DNA from: Enterococcus phage VRE9_4
Sequence record: PP680570.1
Length of the DNA: 64,000 nucleotides
Reading direction: 5' to 3' (one strand)
In this document: positions 32,059-61,466 of the stretch, one piece after another
How the letters are laid out: each line of letters begins with the position of its first letter
How positions within the stretch are numbered: the first letter of the stretch is position 1
Position numbers and translations under genes: made by a program
The notes under the pieces: generated by a model
The model's database searches: none
The model's input: the letters and a program-made list of their open reading frames with translations, nothing else
What the model was told of the DNA's origin: nothing

Positions 32059-32064
32059 TATTTT

Positions 32065-32350: not shown

Positions 32351-33862
32351 ATGACATTTTTAGATAATTTGAAAGAGGAAGCAACAGTTGGACGCACTTT
32401 TAATGGTGCAACCACTTATACTACTTCATTAAATGCTAATGTTGACTTTTTTGCATTAGGTGGGTCTATGCGATACCAAAATATTGGAGATAAGATTTCA
32501 TTATTTGAAAAAGCATATAATGAAGACAGAGCTATTGCATTGAGAAACCTAGTTTATATGCGAGATATTCGTAATGGTGGACTAGGTGAAAGAGATATGT
32601 TCCACGCAGGAATTTGGTTCTTAGCTAAAAAGAAAGATGAAAAAGCACTTCATGTTATCATGGATAATGTAGCTGATTTTAGTCGCTGGGACGATCTATT
32701 TTTCATTATGAAACAAGACGAAAAATTGTTTGATTATGGACTAATTATCATTAAAACTCAGCTTTTGAAAGATATGGATAATATGCGAAAAGGCAAAGAA
32801 ATTTCTTTATTAGGAAAATGGTTGCCTAATATCAATGCTAAAAACGAAGAACGAAGAGCTTTTGGTCTTAGAGTTGCTAATGCTTTAGGATACACTAAGC
32901 CTAGTGATTATAAGGTTTACCGAAAAATGTTGGTTAACCTAAGAGAAAAATTAGATTTAGTAGAAGTAAAATTAGCTGCTAAAGATTATGACTCAATTGA
33001 TTTTTCTAAACTACCTTCTCGAGCAGGATTCAAGTATCGCTCAGCATTTTGGCGCCATATTTCAGATCGCTATTCTGAATTTTTGGAAGCTGTGAATAAT
33101 GGCGAAGCTACAATGAACGGAAGTTTGGTAATGCCAGATGAAATTATTAAAGCTTATGGATATCGAGGGTATTTTTCTTATGGATATTCTTCTTATGAAG
33201 AAAAACCTGAATTAGAAGCTGCATGGAAATCTCTAAAAGATACTGTTAAGGGTTCTGATGAGAATGTAATTGTAGTCGCAGATACTTCTGCTTCTATGTG
33301 GGGTAAACCATGGGAAGTGGCTGAAGGTTTAGCAATTTATACTGCTGAACGCTTGGAAGGACCGTTCAAGAATAATTTTATCACTTTCTCTAGACGCCCA
33401 CAATTGGTAACTCTACCAAGTAATTGTTCCTTACGAGATAAAATGAACGAATATTCTCGTCATTCTATTATCGAAAACACAGATATTGAAGCAGTATTTA
33501 ATCTTATTTTAGATACTGCTATCAAGAATAACACTCCAAAAGAGGAAGTTCCATCTAAAATTATCATTGTTTCAGATATGGAATTTGATCTTCAACGAGG
33601 AAATGACGTTACACATTTCAAACTTGCAAAATCTCGTTTTGAGAACGCTGGTTATGAAATGCCAGATGTAGTCTTTTGGAATGTAAATGCTAGATTAGGA
33701 AACTTACCTGTTCGTTATAATGAACAAGGAGTAGCATTAGTATCTGGATTCAGCACAAATATTCTAACTTCCATCTTAAATGGGAAACTAGAAACTCCAG
33801 AAGCTATGATGTTAGAAACGTTATCTAATCCAGCATTTGACTTCATTGATGAAGCCATCTAA
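32351..33862 (+). CDS. Ro60/TROVE-like or DUF2828-like protein with C-terminal von Willebrand A (MIDAS) domain
   Basis: 503 aa; ~300-aa helical N-terminal region followed by VIVVADTSASMWG (DxSxS MIDAS) and downstream Thr/Asp ligands (IIIVSDMEFD). Confidence 0.55.
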   Translation: MTFLDNLKEEATVGRTFNGATTYTTSLNANVDFFALGGSMRYQNIGDKISLFEKAYNEDRAIALRNLVYMRDIRNGGLGERDMFHAGIWFLAKKKDEKALHVIMDNVADFSRWDDLFFIMKQDEKLFDYGLIIIKTQLLKDMDNMRKGKEISLLGKWLPNINAKNEERRAFGLRVANALGYTKPSDYKVYRKMLVNLREKLDLVEVKLAAKDYDSIDFSKLPSRAGFKYRSAFWRHISDRYSEFLEAVNNGEATMNGSLVMPDEIIKAYGYRGYFSYGYSSYEEKPELEAAWKSLKDTVKGSDENVIVVADTSASMWGKPWEVAEGLAIYTAERLEGPFKNNFITFSRRPQLVTLPSNCSLRDKMNEYSRHSIIENTDIEAVFNLILDTAIKNNTPKEEVPSKIIIVSDMEFDLQRGNDVTHFKLAKSRFENAGYEMPDVVFWNVNARLGNLPVRYNEQGVALVSGFSTNILTSILNGKLETPEAMMLETLSNPAFDFIDEAI

Positions 33863-33900
33863 AATGCCCCCCTTTTCTACCTCTTAATTGAGGTAGTTAC

Positions 33901-33974
33901 GCTTCTTTAGCTCAGTAGGTAGTAGCGCCAGTCTGAAGAACTGGAGGTCCCTGGTTCGATTCCAGGAGGAAGCA
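33901..33974 (+). tRNA. tRNA-Phe (GAA)
   Basis: GCTCAGTAGGTAG D-arm; CCAGT-CTGAAGA-ACTGG; T-arm CCTGG-TTCGATT-CCAGG. Confidence 0.8.
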
Positions 33975-34031
33975 TTAATTCAGCCCAGGAAAGTGCCAAT
34001 ACTATATTCGCTCTCTTGGGCTTTTTCATAT

Positions 34032-34060
34032 TTGAAAAAATATATTAATCATGTTATAAT
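34032..34060 (+). promoter_or_regulatory. promoter TTGAAA-N14-TGTTATAAT driving tRNA-Cys
   Basis: rigid architecture + leader-like TAATCATAAAGTTAATTAAG. Confidence 0.55.
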
Positions 34061-34092
34061 TAATCATAAAGTTAATTAAGAACTTTAAAAAT

Positions 34093-34166
34093 GTCCCTGT
34101 CGCCAAGAGGCTTAAGGCTATGGATTGCAAACCCATAATACGTGAGTTCGAATCTCACCAGGGACT
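34093..34166 (+). tRNA. tRNA-Cys (GCA)
   Basis: acceptor GTCCCTG/CAGGGAC; loop TTGCAAA; T-arm GTGAG-TTCGAAT-CTCAC. Confidence 0.75.
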
Positions 34167-34193
34167 TTTAAATAAAAAGGAGTCGATAATGGA

Positions 34194-34490
34194 ATGGATA
34201 AGGAAAAAATTAAAGAATCTTGGAGCTATTGTTTAACCCGAAGCACTAACATCAGAAAATTAGCTTCTAAAAATGAAGCTATTAGGAAAGATAGTTTAGA
34301 AAAAAACATTGCTACTAAAACTGCTTTAGAAATTTTAAAAGAGCAATTAAATGTTTTAATTGAGATGCTGGAGAAAATTGATTTAGAAGAAGAACTTCTC
34401 TTAACTTATCAAGAGAAAGCTGCGGTAGAGTATCTTATTGAAGTATATGAAAATCTTATTATTGTGAAAGAGGGGGAGCAACTTGACTAA
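34194..34490 (+). CDS. hypothetical protein (98 aa)
   Basis: ORF. Confidence 0.45.
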   Translation: MDKEKIKESWSYCLTRSTNIRKLASKNEAIRKDSLEKNIATKTALEILKEQLNVLIEMLEKIDLEEELLLTYQEKAAVEYLIEVYENLIIVKEGEQLD

Positions 34491-35124
34491 ATTTATTACA
34501 AGTGATTGGCATTTCTTTCATAATAATGCTTGTGGTCCAGAAGGATTCATTTCTACTAGAAAAAAGTTTTCCTCTGTAGAAGAGATGAACGATAGTATTA
34601 TTAAAACTATTAATCAAAAGGTTGGTAGAGATGATACCATTATTCATTTAGGAGATATTGGCTTTGGTAAACCTAAAAAATTGTTTGAAACATTAGAAAA
34701 AATCAATGGACAAATTATTTTAATTAAAGGAAATCATGATAGTTCAAAATTATTTAAGTATATTGTAAATAATAATTATCATTATCCATATAGTAACCCT
34801 AAAAAACGTAAACAATCTCCTGACCGAGTTAAATTTTTAGTTGAAGAAGTTGGTTTAAGGGAAAAAATGAATGGTAAGGTTTACTATTTAACTCACTACC
34901 CATTTCAGTTAGGAGAACAACGTAAAAATATGCGTTCAATTTGTGGACATATTCATGAGCAAATTGCTCCTGAGGCTAATATGATTAACGTAGGTATTGA
35001 TTCTCCTGAAATTACTTCAAAGATTTCTAATTTTGGAGAACCTCTTCTTCTGGAAGATGCAATAGAATTAGTTGATAAAAAATGGGAAAAATGGTATAAT
35101 ACTATAAGATTTTTGGGAAGTTAA
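34483..35124 (+). CDS. calcineurin-like metallophosphoesterase
   Basis: SDWHFFH, LGDIGFG, KGNHD, GHIHE motifs; TTG start behind GAGGGGGAG. Confidence 0.7.
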   Translation: MTKFITSDWHFFHNNACGPEGFISTRKKFSSVEEMNDSIIKTINQKVGRDDTIIHLGDIGFGKPKKLFETLEKINGQIILIKGNHDSSKLFKYIVNNNYHYPYSNPKKRKQSPDRVKFLVEEVGLREKMNGKVYYLTHYPFQLGEQRKNMRSICGHIHEQIAPEANMINVGIDSPEITSKISNFGEPLLLEDAIELVDKKWEKWYNTIRFLGS

Positions 35125-35137
35125 TCTTCCCTTTTAT

Positions 35138-35227
35138 GGAGCTATGACTGAGAGGTTGAAGGTGACGCACTGCTAATGCGTTAGTCGACATAAAGTTGGC
35201 TCATGGGTTCGAATCCCATTAGCTCCT
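35138..35227 (+). tRNA. tRNA-Ser (GCT), type II
   Basis: ACGCA-CTGCTAA-TGCGT; T-arm ATGGG-TTCGAAT-CCCAT; acceptor GGAGCTA/TAGCTCC. Confidence 0.7.
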
Positions 35228-46182: not shown

Positions 46183-46941
46183 TTAATTTTGAAAACTTGC
46201 TTCAAATTCTTTCATATTAATTTCAGCAATTTTTTCAGAATGAACTTTTGTAGGGATACGCCAGCACATTCTATTTATTTTTCGATTCATTTTTTTGTGT
46301 TGTTTATAGCACCATGCCATTATTGCCACTTCTATATATACATCTGCCAACCCTGTATGTTCCTCTACAAAATCAGTTGTTTTCATCATCCAATTGTAAG
46401 CGACTTCTGCATTAGTTTTTAGGTTACCAGCTTTTGAATAGTAACCATTTTCAAACGCCCACTTTGGAAAACTTTTCTGCGAAAAAATTGTCTGGCAAGC
46501 CATATGCCAAATACAATTTATTTCTAAATTTTTTCCTACTTCATAAGGGAAGAAAAATGGATAGTTTGTCAATTCTTGCCATGTATTATTTAAAGCTTTG
46601 ACAAAATCAAAATAAGCGTTATAGGCTGCCACCGTTTTGATATTGTATTTTTCTATAATGTTAAGAATAACTCTTCTAACATATCTAAACGGCTTCACTT
46701 TCATAATTCCCTGAGAAATTTTTTCACGATACAAAGGCAATTTTGCATAGTAATAAGCGCTACGCATTAAAGCATCATCATCAAAAATTTCTGAAATTGC
46801 GAACGAATGTTCTTCATAGATATTCCCTTTTTTGTCAGCTACAACAAAACCTACATCGTAACATAATGGATTTTTTTCAACATCCCCAGCTGTTTCTACA
46901 TCTAAAACTAAAATATATTTTTTTCTTTTGTCAATTTTCAT
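46183..46941 (-). CDS. DEDDh-family 3'-5' exonuclease (DnaQ/DexA-like), paralogue 1
   Basis: LVLDVETAG (Exo I), YNAYFDF (Exo II), EEHTGLADVYIE (Exo III H-x4-D). Confidence 0.7.
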   Translation of the reverse strand: MKIDKRKKYILVLDVETAGDVEKNPLCYDVGFVVADKKGNIYEEHSFAISEIFDDDALMRSAYYYAKLPLYREKISQGIMKVKPFRYVRRVILNIIEKYNIKTVAAYNAYFDFVKALNNTWQELTNYPFFFPYEVGKNLEINCIWHMACQTIFSQKSFPKWAFENGYYSKAGNLKTNAEVAYNWMMKTTDFVEEHTGLADVYIEVAIMAWCYKQHKKMNRKINRMCWRIPTKVHSEKIAEINMKEFEASFQN

Positions 46942-46980
46942 GCTTACCTTTTTCCACCTTTTTAATAAAATATTTTTTGA

Positions 46981-47012
46981 AAAAATTAAAGGCTAGGTTT
47001 TTACGCCTAGCC
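46981..47012 (-). terminator. terminator GGCTAGG...CCTAGCC
   Basis: 7-bp stem + T-run on minus strand. Confidence 0.55.
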
Positions 47013-47023
47013 CTCGGCGTTTC

Positions 47024-47413
47024 TTAAATAATTTTGTAACCCACTTTTTTCTTGTCGCTTGTTGCGATTCCTTTTTCTAGGATTCCTTCTTCTACTAAAC
47101 CTTTTAGGCGTGGGGTCATTTTTTGTGGAGTGTAGTCAAACTCTAAAGCTTCATTCACTTCTTGACTTGTGTAAAATGTTTCTGGATCAGCTTCTTCAAA
47201 GAACCATTCTTGAATTTTTTGCATGTCTGCGATTTTTTCTTTGTTTGTCTTGCTTTGGCTAGGTTTGCGGTTAGCGTTACGTTTTTGAGCTTGTTCGCCT
47301 TTTTCTACGACAAAATCAATAACTTCTTGCGGTGCTTTTACATTTGACAAGATACGAGCAACTTCTGCAAATTTTTCAGCTACGACTAGTTTTTCAAATT
47401 GTGTTTTTTCCAT
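47024..47413 (-). CDS. small winged-helix protein, paralogue family member (wH-3); first gene of an early operon
   Basis: ATG 47413 behind AAAGGTGG; C-terminal TPQKMTPRLKGLVEEGILEKG...KKKVGYKII; three tandem TTGCAA promoters upstream (47450-47690). Confidence 0.55.
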   Translation of the reverse strand: MEKTQFEKLVVAEKFAEVARILSNVKAPQEVIDFVVEKGEQAQKRNANRKPSQSKTNKEKIADMQKIQEWFFEEADPETFYTSQEVNEALEFDYTPQKMTPRLKGLVEEGILEKGIATSDKKKVGYKII

Positions 47414-47695
47414 GATAAATTCCACCTTTTTAAAATTTTGTTAGTAAGTTGTTCCCTTACTACTCTTTAAGTATAAACGATTTTCAATTATTTTGCAAGT
47501 CTTTTTTTTGCTTTATTAGAAAATTCTCATTTAAGCTTAAAGAGTAACAAGTGAACTTCCCTCTTAAGTATATCATACTTTTTTTAACTTTGCAAGTATA
47601 AAGTTTATTTATTTTTCAAAGAACTTTTTGCAATCTCTTTCCTTATCTCTAATACTATTATAGCAAACTTGAAAAGAGATTGCAAGCATAAAGTC

Positions 47696-48322
47696 TTAAA
47701 TAATTTTGTCAATCGTGATTTTTTTGATTAGTGTTTCAAGTGTTTGTTTGGTTGGTTCGACTAGTAAACGATAATCAGCATGTTTGAATAAACCGAAATC
47801 GCTCGCAGTATCTCCCCACGCCTCTATATAACTATATTCGTTTGTGTTTATGTTCCACTGAATGCAATCATCTTTTTGTGATTCTGAAAACATGCCCTTA
47901 ACCTTTCCAGTGAAACGATCATCTGCTTTCAAATATTCAGTTGCATAGTATGAACAGCCCAAAAAGTCAGCTAAATGTTTAATTAGAAAATCGCTCGAAC
48001 CTGTAACAAGAACAACTTCAAAGCCTTGTAAAATTTTTTCTTTTAAATCGTCCAACGTTTCATACCAATTTTTCCCATTTTCTAAAAATTGAGAAACAAA
48101 CTCTTTTGCATGCATTTCTTTTTCTGTTTTCCCTGTTATCTCGTTGCGATAATTTTCGGCAACGGCAACAATCAGACTTTCATTTTTAACATCTTTTTTC
48201 CATGCTTTAAAAGAGCCATCATCTTTTATGATTCCTTTTTCAATTAAAAAACCCGCATGAGATAAAACAACGCTTTTCCTTGTTAGTGTTCCATCTACAT
48301 CTGTTAGAATTAAATTTTTCAT
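47696..48322 (-). CDS. HAD-superfamily phosphatase
   Basis: motif I LTDVDGTLT, motif IV GDTASD. Confidence 0.75.
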   Translation of the reverse strand: MKNLILTDVDGTLTRKSVVLSHAGFLIEKGIIKDDGSFKAWKKDVKNESLIVAVAENYRNEITGKTEKEMHAKEFVSQFLENGKNWYETLDDLKEKILQGFEVVLVTGSSDFLIKHLADFLGCSYYATEYLKADDRFTGKVKGMFSESQKDDCIQWNINTNEYSYIEAWGDTASDFGLFKHADYRLLVEPTKQTLETLIKKITIDKII

Positions 48323-49139
48323 TTCTTTCGTCCTCCCTTTATCTTATATACTTATTATAGGGGATAAACGATAAAAAGTAAAGCATTTTACACATTAAAA
48401 TTATTAAAGTTTAATGAGAATTGTTTCTAATTTACACACAATTCACCAGGCGTTATTTTATAATTAAATAACAGCTTTTCTTCGGACACATGTTATTTTA
48501 TAAACCTGTAAGCGCTTACAAACTGCGTCAGATCAAGCTTTCAATAGATTTTCAGAAATTTTCATTGTTGTTTCAATAACAGGCAAAAAAATACATGTGA
48601 AATAATTCACAAACATAAAATAACACCCAAGAGCAGAAAAAATAACACACTTTGGCTCGTGCGCACATTCACATTCTCTTGCTCTCTTGGAATGAAAAGG
48701 CTGTGAAAGCTTGGTATAATAGGCTTCCTGGGTTGCGAAAAAATTCACATGCATGGACTTTTGGGATATTAAAATAACATTAAAAAACAATTAAATAACG
48801 AGCCAAAAACTTGACAGGGATAAAATAACACAGTAAAATGGCGCTCGCCAGCGAGCGGCCGAAAAATAACGTCCTCTATTTGTTATTTTATTCATTTCAC
48901 AAACTTTAGTTTCAGGATTCTGTTATTTTATTTTTGAAAATCATTTTTCAATTTATGAAAATGAAAATGAAAGCTTGATACATCAAGGTTTTGGGAGCCT
49001 CGCCCCACAATGTTATTTTATCTTCTTCCTTTGGGGCTGTTATTTTATTTTATACATTTCATAAACTTTACTTTTAAAATAACACGTATTTCTTTGTGAA
49101 AAAATTCACAAGCAAAATTAAAAAAAGATGAGAAGAATC

Positions 49140-49397
49140 TCATCTTTCAAAAATACGCCCTAAATTATAATCAATGTTATAATTAAAATCTGAATAGTCA
49201 TTAACAACATCAACAAAGTTGAAAAACTCAACTACTATTTTTTCGGCTTCTTCTGGCTCTAAACAACCACTCATAATTTCATCATTCAAAATTAATAAAT
49301 CTTCAATTTTTCGATATAACACTGAAAACTCATCTTTATCATATACCTCAACTAAAAAAATTTTTCCTGTAGGCATTTTTACAATTACGTTTCCCAT
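49140..49397 (-). CDS. hypothetical early protein (85 aa)
   Basis: own promoter TTGACT-N14-TGTTATACT (49429-49457) and SD. Confidence 0.45.
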   Translation of the reverse strand: MGNVIVKMPTGKIFLVEVYDKDEFSVLYRKIEDLLILNDEIMSGCLEPEEAEKIVVEFFNFVDVVNDYSDFNYNIDYNLGRIFER

Positions 49398-49428
49398 TTA
49401 ATTCATTCCTTTCCTTTACTATATATAT

Positions 49429-49457
49429 AGTATAACATATAAGTAAAAGGGAGTCAA
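49429..49457 (-). promoter_or_regulatory. early promoter TTGACT-N14-TGTTATACT with -35 inside a terminator-like hairpin
   Basis: reverse-strand reading. Confidence 0.6.
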
Positions 49458-49466
49458 CCCTTTTAC

Positions 49467-49724
49467 TTAATTTTCTTGATTAAATTTTTCTAATCGTTTT
49501 AACAAAATTTTTCCATTTATTTTAGCTATTAATTTGCCAATTAAACTTTTTGACATAGATAAATTTTTAAATCTGAAATAATAGAAATCACTTCTATTTT
49601 CTCCTTTTCTAAATTCATAAGCCAGCTTACCATTTAAAATTTGATTGTGGAGAAAAATCTTTACTTCTGGGAAACTCTCAATAATATAATAGTTACCATT
49701 GTTTACAAAAACATTCATTTGCAT
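49467..49724 (-). CDS. hypothetical early protein (85 aa)
   Basis: own promoter TTGACA-N14-TGATATAAT. Confidence 0.45.
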   Translation of the reverse strand: MQMNVFVNNGNYYIIESFPEVKIFLHNQILNGKLAYEFRKGENRSDFYYFRFKNLSMSKSLIGKLIAKINGKILLKRLEKFNQEN

Positions 49725-49781
49725 TTAATTCATTCCTTTCTTAACTTTCTATAATTATTATATCAAGGAAAGGGCTGTTTG

Positions 49782-50084
49782 TCAACCCTTTTCCTCAATT
49801 TCTTTGATAATTCTTTTTTCGTCCTCTGGTAACATTTGAATAACAGTCTTTACTACTATAGTTTTATCTGTTTCATTACAGACATATAAGCGAGAACCGA
49901 AAACCCACAATTTAAATTCATTCTCTTCATTTTTTGGCGTTTTCTTCCTTACGTTCTTAATTTGAAAATCGTTAAGAATTGCCGAACGAACTTGTCTATT
50001 ATTCATTTGTTCTTTAGCTACTCTTTCTAAGTAGCGCTCTTTGGCGTGTTGTGTGATAATAACTTTTTTAGTAAATAAAAGCAT
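49782..50084 (-). CDS. hypothetical early protein (100 aa)
   Basis: own promoter + SD. Confidence 0.45.
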   Translation of the reverse strand: MLLFTKKVIITQHAKERYLERVAKEQMNNRQVRSAILNDFQIKNVRKKTPKNEENEFKLWVFGSRLYVCNETDKTIVVKTVIQMLPEDEKRIIKEIEEKG

Positions 50085-50142
50085 TTGTTACAACTCCTTT
50101 CTATATTCTTATTATATATTATAAGGGTTGAAAAGTCAACCC

Positions 50143-50514
50143 TCAACCCTCAAAAAACTTTTTAGTAATTTTTTCCTTTACATTAATTTTTTCAATTTTT
50201 TCTTTTGCAGAAAAATCTGTCACGTCAATACTGTGGATTCTGTGCTTGTCATTGTCACTAATAAAATTATTCGACCCGAAAAAATTATATACTTCTGTTA
50301 ATTCATCAGCTTCATTATCCTCAAAAAATTCGACTAGTTTATAATCATATTCATTTTGAATTTTCCGTTTTCTTTTTGCAACTAAAGAACCTTTATAATA
50401 TAATTTAACAGTCATATTATTAGTTAATAAGTTAAATTTCCCAGTGTAAACACAAAGTTCGTCCACTCCAATTAGTTTTACTTTCTTTTCTTCAAATGTT
50501 TTAAAAATTTGCAT
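50143..50514 (-). CDS. hypothetical early protein (123 aa)
   Basis: ATG 50514 (AAGGAG SD overlaps track GTG). Confidence 0.5.
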   Translation of the reverse strand: MQIFKTFEEKKVKLIGVDELCVYTGKFNLLTNNMTVKLYYKGSLVAKRKRKIQNEYDYKLVEFFEDNEADELTEVYNFFGSNNFISDNDKHRIHSIDVTDFSAKEKIEKINVKEKITKKFFEG

Positions 50515-50543
50515 TTCGTTCACTCCTTATTCTTTATATTATT

Positions 50544-50572
50544 ATTATAACAGGTGGTAAAGGGTTTGTCAA
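50544..50572 (-). promoter_or_regulatory. early promoter TTGACA-N14-TGTTATAAT; -35 in loop of GGTAAAGGG/CCCTTTACC hairpin
   Basis: reverse-strand reading. Confidence 0.6.
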
Positions 50573-50976
50573 CCCTTTACCTTATATTTTTTAGGACTTC
50601 CGCCTAAGTCTTCCAGATATCCCTTTTCTTTCATTTTTTTCAATCTGCTAGGGGTCTGACGGTTTGTGTATTTATCAGCAACTAACAAATGAAAATCTTT
50701 ATTTTGAAAATACTCTTTGCCACCGAAAGCAATTTTCACTACATTGTTAAATAAGTCGTCAATTTCATCTTCTGTAATTTTTGCCTTTGCATTTTTAGCT
50801 TTCTTGATTTCTTTTTGTTCTTTTTCAAAGTCTGTTTTCTTGTCACTTTCAAACTTATCAAACTCTCTTAACTCGATAGCTTCGGCAAGATTCAACTCTA
50901 ATTTTTCAACCATTTCATCAATTAATTTCCAATCATGAGAAGTAATCTTTTCGCCGTTAGAAAATGTTTCTTGCAT
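50569..50976 (-). CDS. small winged-helix protein, paralogue family member (wH-4)
   Basis: ATG 50976; C-terminal NRQTPSRLKKMKEKGYLEDLGGSPKKYKVKG. Confidence 0.5.
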   Translation of the reverse strand: MQETFSNGEKITSHDWKLIDEMVEKLELNLAEAIELREFDKFESDKKTDFEKEQKEIKKAKNAKAKITEDEIDDLFNNVVKIAFGGKEYFQNKDFHLLVADKYTNRQTPSRLKKMKEKGYLEDLGGSPKKYKVKG

Positions 50977-51037
50977 ATAACACCATTCCTTTCCTTTACT
51001 ATATATATAGTATAACATGAAAACTTTTTTGTGTCAA

Positions 51038-51283
51038 CTATTTTTCACTTTTTTCCCAAAGATAATTATCGCATGCCACAAAAAGACTTTCTAAAAATTT
51101 TAAGGCTTCAAAAAAAGGTTTTTGCATATAGTTTTTATAAATAGGATTTTCGTCAAAAGGCGTTGCCCAATTAGAAACATAATAGACCAATCCTTCCCAA
51201 TCAGCTTTACCATAAAAATCGCTAATTTGTTCATCTGTAGAATTTTCTAAAATGGTATTAATATCTTTTTTCATTTTATCCAT
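51038..51283 (-). CDS. hypothetical early protein (81 aa)
   Basis: GGAGGGG SD. Confidence 0.45.
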   Translation of the reverse strand: MDKMKKDINTILENSTDEQISDFYGKADWEGLVYYVSNWATPFDENPIYKNYMQKPFFEALKFLESLFVACDNYLWEKSEK

Positions 51284-51509
51284 TTTCGTCCCCTCCTTAA
51301 CTTTCTATAATAATTATAACAGATAAAACTAAAAAAATCAAATAATAAATACATGAGTTTTAGGATATTTTTTCTCATTAAACTTTTAGAAAAAATTTTG
51401 ATTTTTTTCTTGATATAGACCTAATTTTGTGGTAAAATTTCCGCCCGAAAACGGCAAATTTGCTCACTATTTCACAAGAAAGCTAAATAAAAAAAGGCTT
51501 TTCAGCCTT

Positions 51510-51749
51510 TTAAAAATGATTGCCAAGTATAGAATACAAACCTCCCCAGCCAATAAAGAAAATATACAAAATACCAAGAAAACCGCTCAAAGTGAAAAAT
51601 TTACCAGATATAATAATAAAAATAAAATATATAATAGGTATAAAAAACATAGTACCAAACAAAACCGATGATACAATCCCCCAAAAAAATAAGCTTGCTC
51701 TTTCTTTGGACTTTCTTTTCTTTCTATTTCTGATTTCAATTCTATTCAT
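51510..51749 (-). CDS. small membrane protein with basic N-terminus
   Basis: RNRKKRKSKER then 2-3 TM; own TTGACA promoter at ~51790. Confidence 0.4.
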   Translation of the reverse strand: MNRIEIRNRKKRKSKERASLFFWGIVSSVLFGTMFFIPIIYFIFIIISGKFFTLSGFLGILYIFFIGWGGLYSILGNHF

Positions 51750-51799
51750 TCTTATCATTCCTTTCTATAGTTATATTATAGCAAATAAAAAGAGTTGTG

Positions 51800-52519
51800 T
51801 CAACTCTTTTTATTATTTAAATTTTCTTCGTTTACAATTCGCCACGCTTGAGGATTAATAGAATAAGCATGAATAGGAATTTCTTTTTCTTGACTTAATA
51901 GACAATGTAAAATTTTTGTTTCATCTATGCTATCCTGTAAAGCAGTATGCTCTTCAATGTAACCTGTATCATTAAACAAAAATTTGTAAGTTGCTTCTGC
52001 ACCAGTTTGATAATTTCCTTTTTCTGTCAAAAGGTTGTGAGTTTTTGCGAACTCTTTATATTCTGGCGTATTTAATACAGTATAAGCGGCAACTGGATAA
52101 ATATCAATCAAAAAGAAATTATCAAAGAAATCAAAATCCTTCCCTGAAAAAAAGAAATGAGTTTTTGCAATTACACGAGTGTCAAAACCTAAGTTATAAG
52201 CACCAATGTAAGCAACATTATATTTTTTACAGTCTTTTTTAAGTTGTCCGATAATGTTCGCCCACTTGCTAACAATGATTCTTTTTTCAAGTAATTTTGT
52301 AAAATATATTTTTCCATCAACTACATTTTCATCAATCAAGAAAGCACGTTTTTTATTCAACGCTTGAAATTTGAATTGTTCTACCATGTAAGAACGTTCT
52401 ACTAAAATATTTCCCTTTTTGTCTGAAATAGCCCAACCAATATCGAAAACTGATTGATAAGGCATTCCCTCGCCTTCTTTTGTTGTTTCAGTATCTAAAA
52501 TCAAAAATGTTTCTTGCAT
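51800..52519 (-). CDS. DEDDh-family 3'-5' exonuclease, paralogue 2
   Basis: LILDTETT, YNLGFDTR, EEHTALQDSIDE; ATG 52519 behind AAAGGTGG. Confidence 0.7.
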   Translation of the reverse strand: MQETFLILDTETTKEGEGMPYQSVFDIGWAISDKKGNILVERSYMVEQFKFQALNKKRAFLIDENVVDGKIYFTKLLEKRIIVSKWANIIGQLKKDCKKYNVAYIGAYNLGFDTRVIAKTHFFFSGKDFDFFDNFFLIDIYPVAAYTVLNTPEYKEFAKTHNLLTEKGNYQTGAEATYKFLFNDTGYIEEHTALQDSIDETKILHCLLSQEKEIPIHAYSINPQAWRIVNEENLNNKKS

Positions 52520-52612
52520 GTAATTTTCCACCTTTTCAATAAATTTATTTGTTCCTTAACTACTATTTAAGTATAACAAAAGGGCTTGAGCTTGTCAAGC
52601 CCTTTTACTAAC

Positions 52613-53026
52613 TTATTTCAATTTGTAAGCTACTTTTTTATCCTTTACAACTTTTTCAAATTCTTCATTATCAACTAATGGTTTCATGATTGCCGTCAAT
52701 TTTTGAGGTGTAGCACCAACAAGCCCAATTAATTCAGAAATTTCGTGCAATGTTAAGGCTGTTTCTGGTTCTAAGTCAAGAAATGCTTTTCGTACTTTAT
52801 CCATATTTTCGGCTTTTTCTTTTGCTGTTTTGCTTACGCCTTTTTTACCACGTTTTGCCTTGTCTTGTTTCACTTGTTGAGTGTGCATAGCTTTCAATTT
52901 GTCTAATAATTCAATATCAACTTTTTCAAATAAGTCAGTATTTAAAAATGTTTTGTCCTCGATTGCTTTGCTTACTACTTTAACCGCTAATTCCAATGCT
53001 TGTGCTTTTGTAATTTGTTTTTCCAT
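52613..53026 (-). CDS. small winged-helix protein, paralogue family member (wH-5); first gene of early operon
   Basis: ATG 53026 behind AAAGGTGG (identical RBS/start context to 47413); two tandem TTGACA promoters upstream. Confidence 0.55.
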   Translation of the reverse strand: MEKQITKAQALELAVKVVSKAIEDKTFLNTDLFEKVDIELLDKLKAMHTQQVKQDKAKRGKKGVSKTAKEKAENMDKVRKAFLDLEPETALTLHEISELIGLVGATPQKLTAIMKPLVDNEEFEKVVKDKKVAYKLK

Positions 53027-53188
53027 GATAAATTCCACCTTTTTAAAATATTTTTTTGTAACAATTTCTTATTACATTCTTAGTATAAAACATTTTGATT
53101 TGTTTGTCAAGTGTTTTATACTAATTTCTAACAAGAAATTTTTGTTGTTTTCTTTATACTCTTATTATAGAGTATTGAGAAAGGCTTG

Positions 53189-53392
53189 TCAAGCCTTTTC
53201 CCAATTTTCTTTTAAGAAAGTAACAACGCTATAACTTGTAATAGTTGTTAAGGCAATAAGTAACAAGCTTTGAATAGAGAAGAAACCAGTGTACAAAATA
53301 GCTTGATAAGTAAAGTAGAATGGTACTAAGATACCTCCAGCGACTAAAATTCCTACAAAAACAATTAATAATACTAATTCAGATAATTTCAT
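53189..53392 (-). CDS. small membrane protein (67 aa)
   Basis: 2 TM. Confidence 0.4.
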   Translation of the reverse strand: MKLSELVLLIVFVGILVAGGILVPFYFTYQAILYTGFFSIQSLLLIALTTITSYSVVTFLKENWEKA

Positions 53393-54076
53393 TTTAAAAC
53401 TTCCTTTCCTTTTCTATATATTAAGTATATCATTGTTAAAATGTTTTGTCAATACTTTTTGTTAAATAATTTCAAATTTTCTATTTTTAAATTCTTCTTT
53501 GAAGTCTTGAACGGCTTGTTCATAAGTATCACCTTCAACAAAAATTTCTTCAATTTTAGGATAACCACTATCCAAACTAATTTCATCTAAGAATTTAACA
53601 AGTAAAATATATTTATTCATTTTTTTCATTCCTTTCCTTATCTTGATTCTATTATAACACGACTTAATTCATCTGTCAACACTTTTATCATTTTATCAGC
53701 TTTTTCTTTTCGGTCAATTTCTTTTTCTCTTTGGTTCTTTCTAGCAATCAATTTCAATCTTAAATATTTATTTTTCATTTTAAATCGTTCCTTTCTATAA
53801 TTCTATATTAGCAAACCTCAATGCTTTTGTCAAGCATTTTATTAAATTTATTTTTTTATTTTATTTTTTGTTCCCTCCTTAACTTTCTATAATTATTATA
53901 GCATAGACCAAGAGGAAAGACAATAATAAAACACTGTAATTTTAATTAGAATTTTCTCATTTTGTATGAAAGATGTAAGCGCTTTCATTTTATGGTTTCC
54001 TCCCTGTTTGCGGGGCGTTCTCACCTCTCCTTATATTTATATTATAGCAGAAAAAAATAAGCCCGTCAAGGCTTAT

Positions 54077-54478
54077 TTATAAGTTTTTCCATTTTTTTCT
54101 TTGTTCTCGATAGGTTTTTGCTGTTTGCTCTTCAGTATCATGATGAGCAACCATGTTTGCGCCGATGTTAGTTCCTTGAATTGTTTTTGTTTGTTTGATT
54201 TGTGCTAATTCATCTAAGTTTTTTTGCGAGTATTTTTCAACAGTTTTATATAAACTAGCCTCATTTAAAATTTTAATAACTTTTTTTCGTTTTAAGAAGA
54301 AAGTTTTGTATTCTTCTTCCTCTAATCTGATAAGCTGAATTATTAAATTATCATCAAACCAATCCAACCTTACCTTTAAAACATTATACCCAAAGCATTT
54401 TTCAGGACTTACCTCGATCAATTTTACATCGTCTTCTTTTTTATAATGATATTTTTTGATATATTCTAAATCATTCAT
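54077..54478 (-). CDS. hypothetical early protein (133 aa)
   Basis: AAGGAG SD, ATG 54478. Confidence 0.5.
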   Translation of the reverse strand: MNDLEYIKKYHYKKEDDVKLIEVSPEKCFGYNVLKVRLDWFDDNLIIQLIRLEEEEYKTFFLKRKKVIKILNEASLYKTVEKYSQKNLDELAQIKQTKTIQGTNIGANMVAHHDTEEQTAKTYREQRKKWKNL

Positions 54479-54651
54479 TCTTGTCACTCCTTATTCTTTA
54501 TATATTTATTATAGCATGAGTTTTGGGACAAGTCAACAGAAAAACGCCAAAATAAATAAAAAAAATTTTCTATGAAAGCGCTTTCATTTTATGGTTTCCT
54601 CCCCCCTTACAAGTTCAGTATAACAAAAAAATAGGGGTTTGTCAACCCCTA

Positions 54652-55065
54652 TTACTTAAATTCATTATATAAATTTTCTAATTCAATTTCTTTCTTTTTC
54701 TGTTTCTCTCTATCTTCCACACAATAAAACATATCTCTTACAAAAGGTAAGTCAATCAATCTGAGATTTCCTTTTTTATATTCTGATAACATTAATAAAT
54801 TTTCTTTTTCTGTATCTTCTTCCCACTTATCTGTATAATGATATTTTTCAGAATAAAGGATTTCTACTTTCTTCTTTTTTGAAAATATTTTTTTCTTTTC
54901 TCTAAAATTCATTAGTGAGATTTTAAATAATCCTGTTCTCCATTGAGAAATAAAGACATTTTCAATTATAAGAAATTTATATCCCTCTATCTCTTCATGT
55001 AATTCTACTATCGCAGTTTTTTCATCTAATTTCTTGATATATTCTTTTTGTTCTACTGTAAGCAT
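54652..55065 (-). CDS. hypothetical early protein (137 aa)
   Basis: AAGGAG SD, ATG 55065. Confidence 0.5.
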   Translation of the reverse strand: MLTVEQKEYIKKLDEKTAIVELHEEIEGYKFLIIENVFISQWRTGLFKISLMNFREKKKIFSKKKKVEILYSEKYHYTDKWEEDTEKENLLMLSEYKKGNLRLIDLPFVRDMFYCVEDREKQKKKEIELENLYNEFK

Positions 55066-55126
55066 TTCATTCACTCCTTATTCTTTATATTATTATCATA
55101 ACAGAAAGGGATAATCCTGTCAAGGA

Positions 55127-55453
55127 TTATCTTCTTAAAATTTTTCCAACAAACACATCTTGTCTTATTTGTTCAGCTTGTTCAAGATATATTAATTCAA
55201 ATGAATCTTTATAGATACGATGATTTTTTATATCTAAAGTCTTTTTTGTTGAGAAAAAAGCATCTAAAGCATCTTTTGAAGCCTCTGTTATATCTTCATC
55301 ATAGAAATCTCCTTTCAATTGTTCTTTTATATATTCTGCAAAATCTTTATAAAGCGTTGTAATTAAAAGATGATGATTGCGTAAACGTTTTTCAGTTCTT
55401 TCAACCTCTTTCTTCATTTCATTAATTTTTTCTTTCATTTCTTTTTCTAGCAT
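55127..55453 (-). CDS. hypothetical early protein (108 aa)
   Basis: AAGGAG SD. Confidence 0.5.
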   Translation of the reverse strand: MLEKEMKEKINEMKKEVERTEKRLRNHHLLITTLYKDFAEYIKEQLKGDFYDEDITEASKDALDAFFSTKKTLDIKNHRIYKDSFELIYLEQAEQIRQDVFVGKILRR

Positions 55454-55621
55454 ATTTAGTCACTCCTTATTCTTTATAATATAATTATATCATAGTTATA
55501 GGATAAGTCAATAGAAAAGCGCCAAAAAGTTTAAAAATTTTTTTCAGTGAAAGCGCTTACATTTCTTTCCTCTCTTGGTACAATATTATTATAGCACAAA
55601 AAAAGGACTTTTGCAAGTCCT

Positions 55622-56107
55622 TTATACTAATTCTTTTCCGATTACACTTCTTTTTAATACGTCAATTTTTTCTTTCATTTCTTCACTATCTAAAAATTTA
55701 TTCAAGTTTTCTTTATTAAAATTCTTAGATAATTCAAGAGCCAAAATTTCGCTATCTGTCAATGGATAGTTATGATTGTTTATTCTTCCGCCAACTACTG
55801 AAAAGCATACCTGTTCGTTAGTATCGAAATCTATTAAATATATATCTAAAATTGAAACTTGAAGCCATGAAATAGCAGAATCAGCGTTTCTTACAATTTT
55901 TTTAGAAACTTCTTGATTTGCTCGAAACATTATTACATCAGTAACTCGATTATTTATTGTTGTTACTGTTGTTTTTTTATCCATTAATTTTGGGTCATGA
56001 TTGTATATTCTTCTTCTATACCATGCCTCACTAATACTATAACCAATCATAAACAACATAAGACCTATTAAGACAGCTAAACAAATACTACCAATAACTA
56101 TTCTCAT
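55622..56107 (-). CDS. N-terminally membrane-anchored early protein (161 aa)
   Basis: MRIVIGSICLAVLIGLMLFMIGYSI. Confidence 0.5.
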   Translation of the reverse strand: MRIVIGSICLAVLIGLMLFMIGYSISEAWYRRRIYNHDPKLMDKKTTVTTINNRVTDVIMFRANQEVSKKIVRNADSAISWLQVSILDIYLIDFDTNEQVCFSVVGGRINNHNYPLTDSEILALELSKNFNKENLNKFLDSEEMKEKIDVLKRSVIGKELV

Positions 56108-56178
56108 TTTAAAATCATTCCTTTCTTTTAACTATAATTAGTATAACATGGTTAGAGGTTGATGTCAACCCCTAACAT

Positions 56179-56538
56179 CTATCTTTTTCTTTCCCAGTAG
56201 TATTTTTCAAGAAAATCACAAAAATCTGTTTTTTCATCAATTTTCCATACTATTTTAATTTCATTCGTATTATTGAGCAAACAAATTCTTTCAGTTATAA
56301 AGCCGAGAAAGTCATGAAATTTATTTGTGTCACTTGCTCGCTGTTTATTTCTAAAGAACTTTTTGGGAAGTTCTACATAACTACATCTTTCAGGTAACCA
56401 GCTAGTATAAGCTTTTAAATATAAACTTTTTTTGTTTTCATTCCAAAACATTTCTTCATTATATTGTGACTTTGTTATTACTTGTATAGGATATTTCTCA
56501 TTAGTTTTTAAATTAACTATTTCAATAATCTCTATCAT
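56179..56538 (-). CDS. hypothetical early protein (119 aa)
   Basis: AAAGGAATG SD. Confidence 0.5.
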   Translation of the reverse strand: MIEIIEIVNLKTNEKYPIQVITKSQYNEEMFWNENKKSLYLKAYTSWLPERCSYVELPKKFFRNKQRASDTNKFHDFLGFITERICLLNNTNEIKIVWKIDEKTDFCDFLEKYYWERKR

Positions 56539-56589
56539 ATATTATCATTCCTTTCTATATATCTAATATACCATAGTTTCGGGGTGGTG

Positions 56590-56826
56590 TCAATAAATAT
56601 TTTCATTTAACCATTTAATAAAATCATTATACACTTGATGAATGTCAAATCTATTTTGGAATTGCATATTAAAATCATATTTATTTCGTAACCATTCACT
56701 AAGTGCATAGCTATCAACTAAAGGGCTAGTAAGCTCTTTCTTATATTTAGATAGGTACTTTCGTTCTAGTTCATATTCTAAAGCAAATTCTAAAATCTCG
56801 ATAGCTTCAAGAGTTTCATTATTCAT
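56590..56826 (-). CDS. hypothetical early protein (78 aa), first gene left of the control region
   Basis: TTGACA-N17-TATACT promoter at ~56880-56910. Confidence 0.45.
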   Translation of the reverse strand: MNNETLEAIEILEFALEYELERKYLSKYKKELTSPLVDSYALSEWLRNKYDFNMQFQNRFDIHQVYNDFIKWLNENIY

Positions 56827-57003
56827 TTTGAATACCTCTTTTCAATAGGTTTTAGGGCTATTCATCTAACCCCTATAAATAGTATAATATATAAAACCCT
56901 AATTGTCAAATGATTTTTAACATTAGACAAAATATTTTTATATACATTATGTATGTATATATGCATTCGATAACAGATGTTATTTTAATAGACTATCGAG
57001 AGA

Positions 57004-57017
57004 TGTAAGCGCTTACA
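57004..57017. promoter_or_regulatory. perfect cre-consensus palindrome TGTAAGCGCTTACA
   Basis: matches TGWAANCGNTNWCA at 14/14; identical copies at 48507-48520 and 57491-57504. Confidence 0.5.
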
Positions 57018-57234
57018 AAAGATTTACTTAAACAGATGAATTGAAAGCGCTTTATTTTACGTTTTAAGAGCTTTTCATATTATTTGGCATAATTATCTAT
57101 TAAGCATTATAAAACCCAAGAGAAGAGCAAAGAAGTGTATTGTGGGCGCTATTATTAACTTTTATTAAGGTGTTAGAATAAATAGTCTTATATAAAATAA
57201 CACTTATCAGTTATTATAACAAGTGTTATGTTTG

Positions 57235-57457
57235 GTGGCAGAGATGTGATGAGCTAATACATTGTGAAACATTTCACACATGTACAATCATTCATATAAT
57301 AATTTATTCATATGTATGAATGAACAGATGTACATATATTCATATGTGGCAGAGATGTGATGAGCTAATACATTGTGAAACATTTCACACATGTACAATC
57401 ATTCATATAATAATTTATTCATATGTATGAATGAACAGATGTACATATATTCATATG
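57235..57457. repeat. perfect tandem direct repeat, 2 x 111 bp
   Basis: unit GTGGCAGAGATGTGATGAGC...TACATATATTCATAT repeated head-to-tail (57235-57345, 57346-57456); each unit contains TGTGAAACATTTCACA. Confidence 0.9.
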
Positions 57458-57614
57458 TACTCACTGCCAGTCTGTGAGCATTGTCACAGATGTAAGCGCT
57501 TACAACTCATTGACGCAAGGTGTCAAGCAAAGATACTTGGCGCACATATGTTCGGCTAGCTCCCAGCAACTTGATGAATAACAAAGGTTATTTAATTTTA
57601 TAGTTCGGCATTTA

Positions 57615-57632
57615 AAATAACAAGTGTTATTT
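57615..57632. promoter_or_regulatory. 18-bp perfect palindrome AAATAACA-AG-TGTTATTT (operator-like)
   Basis: second identical copy 57787-57804; half-copy 57216-57229. Confidence 0.55.
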
Positions 57633-58257
57633 AAACATACTTAAATACTTGAACAGATGTACATATGAACATATATTCATATATTGTGGCAGTAGGTACA
57701 GATGGACTAGACCAATCGTAACCCTAAACGATTGTGAAATATTTCACAAGGATTCCACTCAACGTTAGAAATTAGTTGATATTATTAAATAACAAGTGTT
57801 ATTTATGGTGGCAGCAACATAGACGAGTGTTATTTAATTAATAAGGGAGTTAGTGGTAAGGGATGCAGAGGTCGTTATTTAATTAGGTCAATAAGTTTTT
57901 ACAATAGTAATAAAAGGCTTGTTATCATTAGGGTTTGGGCGTTTTCAGGAATGGAATTGAGATTGGAATTGGATTTACGATTGTTATTTCTGCCCATGGG
58001 GGTTGGGTTAATGCGGGTCTTACAGGCTGTTATTTTTTCTAAAATAGCTTTTAGTGGGGATGGTTTTGGGATTTGTGAAAATATTCACAAGTCAATCAGG
58101 GAAGCCGCGGCAATAACACTTAATCAGAGCTTCAAAATTGAAAATCGCATGACTGTCTTTTTTCTACAACGTCTCACGGTTGGGGTAGATTTATCTATAG
58201 TTCTGCCCAGTTTTTATATTGATACCAGAGTAAATGTAAATAAAGGAGGAGTTCGAC

Positions 58258-58458
58258 ATGGCAAAACACGTCATAGAAGAAGAGCTTCTACATGGTTCGG
58301 GCTTTAACGTCGTAACTAATGGAGAAGTAGAAATTACAGCTGATAACGCCGAGCGGATTTTAAAATTTATTACCGATGGCACAATTGATATTGACGTTAT
58401 TAATCATAATATTAAATTTAGCTCTCGAGTTCCAGTATTCACAACATTAGATTGGTAA
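58258..58458 (+). CDS. hypothetical protein (66 aa) preceding tail fibre
   Basis: AAAGGAGGAG SD. Confidence 0.45.
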   Translation: MAKHVIEEELLHGSGFNVVTNGEVEITADNAERILKFITDGTIDIDVINHNIKFSSRVPVFTTLDW

Positions 58459-60446: not shown

Positions 60447-61466
60447 ATGGCATCATTACAATTAAATAATGCTTTGCAAACCTATGAAGAAAGATTAGAA
60501 TGGGTTAACAAAGAGATGAAAAGAATTGGAGAAGATAAATTAACTCCATATCAACGAGATAAAATTGCTACATATTTAATAGATGGAACTAATCCAGAAT
60601 CTCGTGGAGAAATTATTACAGCTAATCGTTTAGTTACAGTAAATAAAAGAGAAACTTCAAGAGAAGGATTAATGGAAAAGCTTGAAGGAGGAGAAAGTGC
60701 TTTCCATCAATTAATTAAACAAGATAAAAATGTAATTTTAACACCAAAGGTAGAAATAACAGAAAAAGATATTGAAGAAGTACCTGGTTTGGCACAACTA
60801 AGAGAAGAAATTGATAAATTACAAAAATATTTAGATGAAAACCCAGATATGCCTAAAAAATTAGCGGGAAAAATTAAACAAACAATTATTGAGATGCGTA
60901 GAGACCAATATGTTCTTAAAAATTCTCATCGTCAACCAATTTTTGGAAGAGGTAATACAGGAAATATTGAGCAAGATATTCATTATGACACTATTAACCT
61001 ACAACAACGAGATCAAGTATTATCATTATTAATCAACTATAGTAGCTTAAAAATTGAATTTAAAGATAATAATGATTCAGATATTAAATGGATTTTAGAA
61101 GATCTTGATAGATTAATTCAAAAATCTCTTGCTGAAAAACCTACTTTACTTTATATTTTAAATGAAAAAATTATTGGGTCACGTAATGATGAAATAAGAG
61201 AAGGACTTATTGAAATTTTTGGAGTAGATCATACACAAGAATATATTTCATCTTTATATAGGAATAAAATTCCACAAATTATTGCCGATGCTGCAACAGA
61301 AGAGTGGATTGATTATATGTACATGAACAAACTTAAGGGAACTTACAAACGTTGTTCTCGTTGTAAAGAAATTAAATTAGCAAATAATCGTAATTTTAGT
61401 ATTAATAGAACATCTTCATCACAGTTTTATTCAATTTGTAAAGAATGTCGTAACAGCAAAAAATAA
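60447..61466 (+). CDS. hypothetical protein with C-terminal Zn-ribbon (339 aa)
   Basis: CSRCKEI...CKEC. Confidence 0.55.
   Translation: MASLQLNNALQTYEERLEWVNKEMKRIGEDKLTPYQRDKIATYLIDGTNPESRGEIITANRLVTVNKRETSREGLMEKLEGGESAFHQLIKQDKNVILTPKVEITEKDIEEVPGLAQLREEIDKLQKYLDENPDMPKKLAGKIKQTIIEMRRDQYVLKNSHRQPIFGRGNTGNIEQDIHYDTINLQQRDQVLSLLINYSSLKIEFKDNNDSDIKWILEDLDRLIQKSLAEKPTLLYILNEKIIGSRNDEIREGLIEIFGVDHTQEYISSLYRNKIPQIIADAATEEWIDYMYMNKLKGTYKRCSRCKEIKLANNRNFSINRTSSSQFYSICKECRNSKK

Follow-up and report, generated by a model that had tools for sequence, protein, structure and literature searches.

A stretch of 64,000 nucleotides of Enterococcus phage VRE9_4 (sequence record PP680570.1), hereafter called the window, carries six perfect matches to the catabolite-responsive element (cre) in its early and control DNA, together with a set of boxes that match the operator of the redox regulator Rex. 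CcpA reports carbon and glycolytic flux, and Rex reports the NADH/NAD+ ratio. We lean towards the reading that the palindromes are genuine cre, which would be bound by host CcpA-HPr-Ser46-P and which, with the Rex operators, would couple phage transcription to the carbon and redox state of the cell. Host CcpA and Rex acting on the phage is the most economical explanation, because two palindromes match two host consensuses while no homologues of the two regulators were found in the phage, and also because the sites are confined to control DNA, stand at promoter-relevant offsets and are kept across phages whose proteins share 25-40% identity. As far as the sequence can tell, cis-regulation is the best reading of their main function in this phage, and it is the reading to which we commit ourselves.

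Six perfect cre matches in early and control DNA

The consensus TGWAANCGNTNWCA is found in the window at 48507, 53974, 54573, 55548, 57004 and 57491 and at no other place. This exact pattern scan agrees with the original prediction, which had been made from the letters alone and had listed six 14-mers at these coordinates as cre matches far above chance. Their excess is indeed large: 0.07 sites were expected under a first-order Markov model against the 6 observed, and dinucleotide shuffles of the window gave a mean of 0.14 and a maximum of 2 matches (both strands) against 12. Three of the sites (48507, 57004 and 57491) are copies of TGTAAGCGCTTACA, and the sequence bears out the earlier statement that these are perfect palindromes. 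The sites are listed here without strand; P1 and P2 are the promoters that precede and follow a cre in the early units described below, and all promoters and terminators in this work are pattern predictions.

48507-48520: cre-1, TGTAAGCGCTTACA, in noncoding DNA of 0.8 kb (48323-49139) with a minus-strand early gene on either side
53974-53987: cre-2 (minus strand TGAAAGCGCTTACA), centre about +53.5 from P1 (54069-54041), upstream of P2 (53923-53895)
54573-54586: cre-3, TGAAAGCGCTTTCA, centre +30.5 from P1 (54645-54617) and -78.5 from P2 (54536-54508)
55548-55561: cre-4 (minus strand TGTAAGCGCTTTCA), centre about +27 from P1 (55616-55588) and -77.5 from P2 (55511-55484)
57004-57017: cre-5, TGTAAGCGCTTACA, in the divergent noncoding region, with a degenerate copy TGAAAGCGCTTTAT at 57042-57055
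57491-57504: cre-6, TGTAAGCGCTTACA, following two rightward promoters at about +80 and +190, with a degenerate Rex-like box (57473-57488) 2 bp away

All six sites fit both published E. faecalis cre forms, TGWAANCGNTNWCA and TG(T/A)NANCGNTN(T/A)CA, with a central CG and dyad symmetry, and all six also fit WTGWAARCGYWWWCW, a consensus taken from PMC3198936. The extended 16-bp consensus WTGNNARCGNWWWCAW (PMC3074128) is matched exactly by four of the six, and the other two are off by one flanking W only. Three sites (48507, 57004 and 57491) lie in long repeat-rich noncoding DNA and the other three between tandem early promoters. By megablast, the window is 94% identical to Enterococcus phages VRE9_1, VRE9_2, VRE9_3, H1, EF1 and EF5 (138-142 kb), and among these close relatives the motifs differ only by exchanges of A and T at the two W positions; cre-1 is conserved in VRE9_1, VRE9_3 and H1. 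A motif check on a whole genome was run on VRE9_1 (140 kb), where all five cre matches fall within 122.8-131.8 kb, which is the equivalent 9-kb early and control stretch.

Early units with a cre between two promoters

At 55548, 54573 and 53974 the same order recurs on the minus strand. A terminator hairpin with an embedded -35 box is followed by the -10 box of P1, a leader of 26-50 nt with a Shine-Dalgarno-like run, and the cre; after the cre come an A/T-rich spacer of about 36-50 nt, P2, a ribosome-binding site and the gene. Measured on these predicted promoters, the cre centres thus stand downstream of P1 in all three units and at nearly the same distance upstream of P2 in two of them, as listed above. 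In each unit the cre overlaps the ATG of a micro-open reading frame (ORF), which has 30 codons at 53974 and 5 at 54573 and is a bare ATG-TAA at 55548, with the palindrome intact in all. Because the micro-ORF decays from 30 to 5 to 1 codons while the palindrome stays, selection would seem to act on the DNA motif and not on the peptide. A coding role, in the form of a conserved MKAL... N-terminus, was rejected on the decay of the frame across the three units.

The early-gene cassettes vary among the close relatives: EF1 is without three of the ORFs and VRE9_1 without one, and the junctions lie inside the terminator/P1/cre/P2 units (window 53.9-55.7 kb; 12174-12314 in locus L005 of EF1; 28527 in locus L003 of VRE9_1). 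Because the indel junctions fall inside them, these units appear to behave as recombination linkers.

Rex-type boxes as a second host-regulator motif

The Rex operator consensus TTGTGAAW4TTCACAA is highly conserved among Gram-positive bacteria (PMC2883068, PMC6018154), and Rex is present in E. faecalis according to work cited in PMC6018154. The noncoding stretches of the window hold seven boxes of the form TTGTGAA-N4-TTCACAA, three of them perfect, three with 1 mismatch and one with 2. The expected number was 0.9 at up to two mismatches, and 0.04 at up to one mismatch against 6 observed. With an eighth, degenerate box they are arranged as follows.

48595-48612: Rex-like box ATGTGAAATAATTCACAA, 1 mismatch
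48733-48750: Rex-like box, 2 mismatches in the window, with a perfect TGTGAAAAAATTCACA core in four relatives
49094-49111: perfect Rex box TTGTGAAAAAATTCACAA, immediately past the terminator at 49148-49123
57262-57279, plus strand: Rex box with 1 mismatch, whose right half TTCACA is the -35 box of the rightward promoter 57273-57300
57373-57390, plus strand: second copy of that box (1 mismatch), with the promoter 57384-57411, from the tandem duplication 57235-57456
57473-57488: eighth, degenerate Rex-like box, 2 bp from the cre at 57491
57732-57749: TTGTGAAATATTTCACAA, a perfect match to the Rex consensus, located in the rightward operon's leader
58073-58090: TTGTGAAAATATTCACAA, likewise a perfect Rex match and in that leader

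The boxes at 57262 and 57373 overlap -35 boxes, which is a repressor-type placement, and the other boxes lie in leader or noncoding DNA. The promoter at 57273-57300 (TTCACA-16-TATAAT, 11/12 predicted matches) and its copy at 57384-57411 are the two best rightward promoters of the region, and both face the operon that encodes the phage sigma factor. The stretch 57235-57456 that carries them is a perfect 111-bp tandem duplication, each copy of which combines A/T-rich palindromes with a Rex box and a rightward promoter. The 111-bp unit is single in H1, EF1, VRE9_3 and locus L071, and VRE9_1 is without the Rex-promoter unit. In the early region, a plus-strand promoter-like site (48692-48720, ATGAAA-17-TATAAT with TG) runs antisense to the early genes, and the Rex box at 48733 lies about 12 nt downstream of its -10 box; the arrangement at 48692-48750 may give a Rex-controlled antisense or noncoding transcript.

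A panel of 17 Firmicute regulator consensus patterns was run on the window, and only cre (6 vs 0.07 expected) and Rex (6 vs 0.04) were enriched. The patterns of CodY, Fur, PerR, Zur, ArgR, CtsR, CIRCE, GlnR, PurR, Fnr, DnaA, WalR and Spo0A stood at background level, and LexA-like boxes were slightly raised (3 vs 0.26 expected). The presence of a second host-regulator motif makes the action of host factors much more likely than coincidence.

Two further motifs of the same DNA are recorded here. At 57541-57554, in the control region, CGAACATATGTGCG departs by 1 mismatch from the LexA (Cheo) box of Gram-positive bacteria, CGAAC-N4-GTTCG, and is kept in relatives. The other is a third repeated motif, TWAAATAACA (reverse complement TGTTATTTWA), of which about 40 copies in both orientations are confined to three noncoding stretches (45.6-46.2, 48.3-49.1 and 56.9-58.1 kb); it matched none of the host regulators tested. 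Exact palindromes of the form ATAACA-NN-TGTTAT stand at 56970, 57216, 57617 and 57789. The motif resembles a PrfA/Ers-type box or an extended -10 element; the PrfA/Ers reading of the palindromic form was set aside, the pattern being only weakly enriched at up to one mismatch.

Operator arrays in distant relatives

The two motifs recur in phages of the IMG/VR collection. An exact-match scan for TGTAAGCGCTTACA returned at least 120 loci, with 1-15 kb around each match covered. Most of the loci listed have one site, and 11 of 120 have at least three consensus sites. The densest arrays are in L021 (19 sites in 4 kb), L087 (17 in 2.8 kb) and L067 (16 in 4 kb), followed by L097 with 9 and by L022, L056 and L064 with 6 each; L120, at 56% GC, has 4. 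The corresponding scan for TTGTGAAWWWWTTCACAA gave at least three Rex boxes in 11 of 119 loci, among them L199 with 9 perfect copies, L171, L182 and L147, the last with 13 matches to the core TGTGAA-N4-TTCACA and many degenerate copies at a period of about 29 bp. Two composition-matched control palindromes, AGTTACGCGTAACT (37 loci in the whole collection) and GATTCAGCTGAATC (at least 120 loci), were treated with the same degeneracy mask, and 0 of their 157 listed loci had three or more sites; the controls are two palindromes and not a null distribution. Selection bias as the source of the arrays was rejected on these two palindromes and their listed loci.

The arrays occupy the same syntenic place as the sites of the window phage, namely noncoding DNA 2-5 kb upstream of a set of shared genes and the adjacent early region. 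In the cre-array loci the shared genes are the phrog_3314 protein, the terminase and the portal, at 24-32% identity to the window phage, and in the Rex-array loci L199 and L182 they are the sigma factor (40-42%) and the phrog_3314 protein (36%). By this shared synteny, some sub-lineages have cre-type and others Rex-type arrays at one locus, and both motifs are present in the Enterococcus clade.

Across 86 sites from the arrays, the letters at positions that the search pattern did not fix converge on the published 16-bp cre consensus (R6 in 92%, Y9 in 100%, T11 in 99%, W at both flanks in 73%). L067 has seven early promoters with a cre centred at -54.5 and a partner about 36 bp further upstream, and the same layout is found in L021 and L087. 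In B. subtilis, the ackA2 cre, which activates, has its centre 22 bp upstream of the -35 box (PMC3074128), compared with about 19.5 bp for the array cre.

The cre-dense early-type stretches are 4386-8391 of L021, 240-4134 of L067 and 647-2697 of L087, in which the typical layout is a cre, 12 nt and TTGACT, with cre pairs about 36 bp apart around a GC-rich, CCGG-containing spacer. L021 had no DNA match in the phage collection; its cre-dense region encodes two paralogous proteins of 81-84 amino acids (6212-6457 and 7791-8045) that have no homologue in the window phage. Head-to-tail arrays are of another kind: 3605-3738 of L064 holds 6 cre at a period of 24 bp, the cre of L093 (421-515) and L097 (848-1168) repeat at about 27 bp, and the Rex boxes of L147 (223-650) at about 29 bp.

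Possible binders

Researchers have found that cre with just this consensus are recognised by CcpA of E. faecalis together with P-Ser-HPr (PMC3198936), and that CcpA-HPr-Ser46-P of B. subtilis binds diverse cre at about 5 nM and more than 100-fold more weakly without the cofactor (PMC3074128). CcpA represses as a downstream roadblock and activates from upstream of the -35 box (PMC3074128). On this published biochemistry, a perfect cre in a glucose-grown enterococcal cell should be occupied.

A Pfam scan of 99 ORFs of the window and 58 from the rest of VRE9_1, with three ORFs of more than 1200 amino acids standing outside it (the tape measure, a 2533-amino-acid protein and the DNA polymerase), found no LacI-family or Rex-family domain. 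A phage-encoded CcpA-like or Rex-like protein was rejected, since none is present among the 157 ORFs scanned. The sole classical regulator in the scan is a Cro/C1-type helix-turn-helix protein of 76 amino acids at 21316-21546, and the early ORFs showed no recognisable DNA-binding domain. The phrog_20187 paralogues beside the arrays were considered as regulators and rejected, as they resemble DEDD exonucleases.

Gene layout around the sites

The six close relatives infect E. faecium or E. faecalis and form with this phage a small clade of large siphovirus-like phages; the GC content of the window is about 30%. Judged by portal and sigma factor, their distant kin are other large siphovirus-like phages of Firmicutes, among them the Lactococcus 949 group, Tsamsa-like Bacillus phages, SPbeta-like phages and phiCD211. 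Three features frame the sites.

46183-56826, minus strand: leftward early region, about 22 small orphan ORFs
56827-58257: divergent noncoding control region of 1.4 kb, between the leftward early genes and the rightward operon
60447-61466, plus strand: phage sigma factor, named from the annotated VRE9_1 orthologue, behind the leader that bears Rex boxes and a cre

A near-consensus sigma-A promoter (11-12 of 12 matches) is predicted ahead of nearly every early ORF, about 20 in all, and in many of them the -35 box lies inside the loop of the preceding terminator hairpin. By these predicted signals, 46.2-56.8 kb is a typical early, host-polymerase-dependent region. Hairpins that hold the TTGACA-like -35 box of the next gene in loop or stem stand at 49440-49469, 50556-50581, 51784-51814, 54055-54078, 54630-54653, 55110-55131 and 55602-55623, and this compact terminator-promoter module recurs across the early region. 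The paralogues of phrog_20187 (46186-46941 and 51803-52531) have weak similarity to DEDD or DNA-polymerase exonuclease subunits, and they are the early proteins most widely common to the array-bearing relatives (26-40% identity).

The rightward operon encodes a 66-amino-acid ORF, a 620-amino-acid tail-like protein, the sigma factor, PhoH and the phrog_3314 protein, and runs on to the terminase. The phage sigma factor is presumed to drive late transcription. An ORF of 118 amino acids at 57951-58307, which is annotated as a coding sequence in H1 and EF1, holds a perfect Rex box and a copy of the TWAAATAACA motif and shares DNA with the well-initiated ORF at 58258; a coding role for it is improbable, and the noncoding control region would then be about 1.4 kb long. 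Elsewhere in the window, eight tRNA genes are clustered at 30684-35227 amid small plus-strand ORFs, and an Rfam search gave tRNAs only. The annotation of VRE9_1 includes the redox and nucleotide metabolism genes NrdD/G, flavodoxin and a thioredoxin-like protein.

How CcpA and Rex may act on the phage

If the host factors bind as proposed, CcpA on the cre 27-54 bp downstream of P1 would be a roadblock for the P1 transcripts of three early genes, and the activity of P2, about 78 bp downstream of the same sites, might be modulated too. With the cre between P1 and P2, carbon status would decide how much P1 contributes and possibly how active P2 is. On the rightward side, Rex on the boxes that overlap the -35 elements would repress the sigma-A promoters that open the sigma-factor operon, and CcpA at the cre 57491, perhaps with Rex at two further boxes, would act on the long leader of this operon. 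Entry of host RNA polymerase into the sigma-factor operon would then be conditional on the redox and carbon state of the host, and the early-to-late switch would be tied to carbon flux and the NADH/NAD+ ratio; the direction of the effect is not readable from the sequence.

This bears on the main proposal of the original prediction, that the host CcpA system, or a phage mimic, gates early transcription according to carbon status, which is supported in part. Ideal cre in early and control DNA, the lack of a LacI-family protein among the phage ORFs scanned and the parallel of Rex speak for it; only three of the six sites lie in early transcription units, and the gated step may equally be the early-to-late switch. 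The Rex boxes, the third repeated motif and the conservation in distant relatives go beyond what had been noted there. A wider proposal, that operator arrays serve the whole lineage as a sensor of metabolic state that sets whether and when the late programme begins, and that their tandem high-copy forms are sponges for CcpA or Rex through which host carbon and redox metabolism is reset, is one that we put forward tentatively and regard as doubtful.

Several observations weigh against the action of host CcpA and Rex as we propose it. Flanking sequence is shared between 53974 and 54573 (17 nt upstream), between 54573 and 55548 (downstream) and between 57004 and 57491 (about 18-27 nt), and paralogous copies cut the six sites to roughly 3-4 independent origins; 3-4 independent perfect sites are likewise far above chance. 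The position of about -78 at P2 differs by 24 bp from the -54.5 of the relatives and does not fall on the same helical face. The sites at 48507, 57004 and 57491 are off the canonical distance from any strong early-strand promoter, with distances of -166 and -136 to the nearest leftward promoters among them. Among distant phages, Brevibacillus phage Sundance (first 12.5 kb) and Phass-1 (first 27 kb) had no cre or Rex boxes. In addition, the tandem arrays with 24-29-bp periods look more like protein-coating or decoy DNA than like promoter operators, and most array contigs belong to one broad phage lineage, in which a conserved lineage-specific binder is possible, and many early proteins are orphans.

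The last point leads to the explanation, which we consider unlikely, that one or more DNA-binding proteins of the phage, such as an early-gene shut-off repressor, use the palindromes as operators, whose cre and Rex identity would be mimicry or coincidence. The motifs run in a lineage of related large siphovirus-like phages, and SPbeta, a distant relative, offers a precedent with its SPBRE repeats, an intergenic operator bound by a phage repressor that lacks a classical helix-turn-helix (PMC10516654). A DNA binder could be hidden among the early ORFs, most of which are orphans, the Cro/C1-type protein is a further candidate, and the TWAAATAACA motif in the same regions matches no host regulator tested. 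However, two unrelated palindromes fit two host consensuses at every specified position, while 15 other patterns of the panel stay at background, and the alternation of cre-type and Rex-type arrays at the same locus by sub-lineage would be hard to reconcile with one conserved protein. No LacI-like or Rex-like protein was found in the 157 ORFs scanned, and the activator-type position at -54.5 needs a factor that is present before phage gene expression.

We also think it rather improbable that the replicated phage genome acts mainly as a decoy, soaking up CcpA and Rex so that host catabolic and fermentative (NAD+-regenerating) genes are derepressed, with effects in cis being secondary. The non-promoter tandem arrays of L064, L093, L097 and L147 would suit such a role, as would the place of half of the window cre and most Rex boxes in long noncoding DNA away from strong early promoters and the redox and nucleotide metabolism genes annotated in VRE9_1. 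Nevertheless, no more than 6 cre and 7-8 Rex boxes are present in this phage, and two Rex boxes that are -35 boxes, three cre at fixed promoter offsets and the seven cre at -54.5 in L067 argue for regulation in cis. Far less probable is that the motif is a passenger in a duplicated mobile terminator/early-promoter cassette, its count inflated by paralogy, or that it forms a leader RNA hairpin. Three sites do lie in paralogous units, inside which the EF1 and VRE9_1 indel junctions fall, but the three others are outside such cassettes, the motif is kept where flanks have diverged and the micro-ORF has decayed, and it recurs in relatives without detectable DNA similarity. A role as an RNA hairpin or terminator was rejected on the folding z of the six contexts (+0.6 to -1.6), the minimum-free-energy folds of which do not form a hairpin from the palindrome.

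Significance and comparison with known systems

If host CcpA and Rex act on the phage as we favour, the productivity or timing of infection would depend on the sugar supply of the enterococcal host and on its oxygen and redox state. The clade includes isolates raised on vancomycin-resistant E. faecium as therapy candidates, and such a dependence would bear directly on how phage therapy in the gut differs from that in blood or urine. One study observed ccpA mutations in E. faecalis challenged with other phages and gave no mechanism for them (PMC8924694), and carbon-dependent infection would explain why ccpA and phosphotransferase system mutations can turn up under phage pressure. Taken with the metagenomic arrays, the idea arises that phages use operator DNA itself to sense or titrate host regulators; operator-array sponges, if they are real, would be a new, protein-free kind of device for host takeover.

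Compared with chromosomal cre, such as those of E. faecalis cit and of B. subtilis ackA (cre2) and gntR, the phage sites are alike in consensus fit, central CG and dyad symmetry, in the downstream roadblock or upstream-of--35 positions, and in having several sites per divergent region as at cit (PMC3198936, PMC3074128). The cit locus has three cre sites, ackA cre2 is activating, and the downstream cre of gntR is a roadblock (PMC3198936, PMC3074128). The phage sites differ in that they are predicted, that they lie in a virulent-type genome, that their palindromes are more perfect, and that they stand between tandem promoters or in noncoding DNA beside Rex boxes. The Rex boxes resemble the operators of Gram-positive bacteria, with three perfect and four to five near matches and two placed over -35 boxes in the classical repressor layout (PMC2883068, PMC6018154), but they are clustered in noncoding DNA and a long leader, and the arrays of the relatives, with at least 9 copies, are unlike any host promoter.

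In the large and distantly related Firmicute siphovirus SPbeta, SPBRE is likewise a short motif repeated in intergenic DNA, and there the phage repressor MrpR maintains lysogeny through it (PMC10516654). The motifs described here are of host consensus, and no cognate phage protein was recognised. In T4-type phages, PeSL cassettes consist of terminator-hairpin and early-promoter repeats that flank small variable early genes and coincide with recombination junctions. The early units of this phage are similar repeated units, and three of them add a host-regulator operator between two promoters.

The closest parallels are phages that carry sites for global regulators of the host. Spo0A boxes in Bacillus phages phi29 and Nf repress early promoters according to the physiological state of the host (PMC2731898), and the present case is alike in that a lytic phage carries such sites; it differs in the signal, sporulation there and carbon and redox here, and in that binding and in vivo effects are proven for phi29 and inferred here. 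T4-like cyanophages have 1-16 NtcA consensus sites per genome and were proposed to exploit host nutrient-status signalling (PMC3037559). They too carry multiple sites for a metabolic master regulator of the host that were recognised from genome analysis, but in another phylum and for another regulator, and their sites are promoter/activator sites spread genome-wide, whereas those of the window are clustered in the early and switch region and some are of repressor type. A literature search of limited scope turned up no mention of cre or Rex operators in the genome of a lytic phage. If our reading is right, the paradigm of phi29-Spo0A and cyanophage-NtcA would extend to two central metabolic regulators of the Firmicutes. 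We therefore rate host global-regulator sites on a phage as a known concept, and the regulator pair, the clustering in the switch region and the lineage-wide arrays as new.

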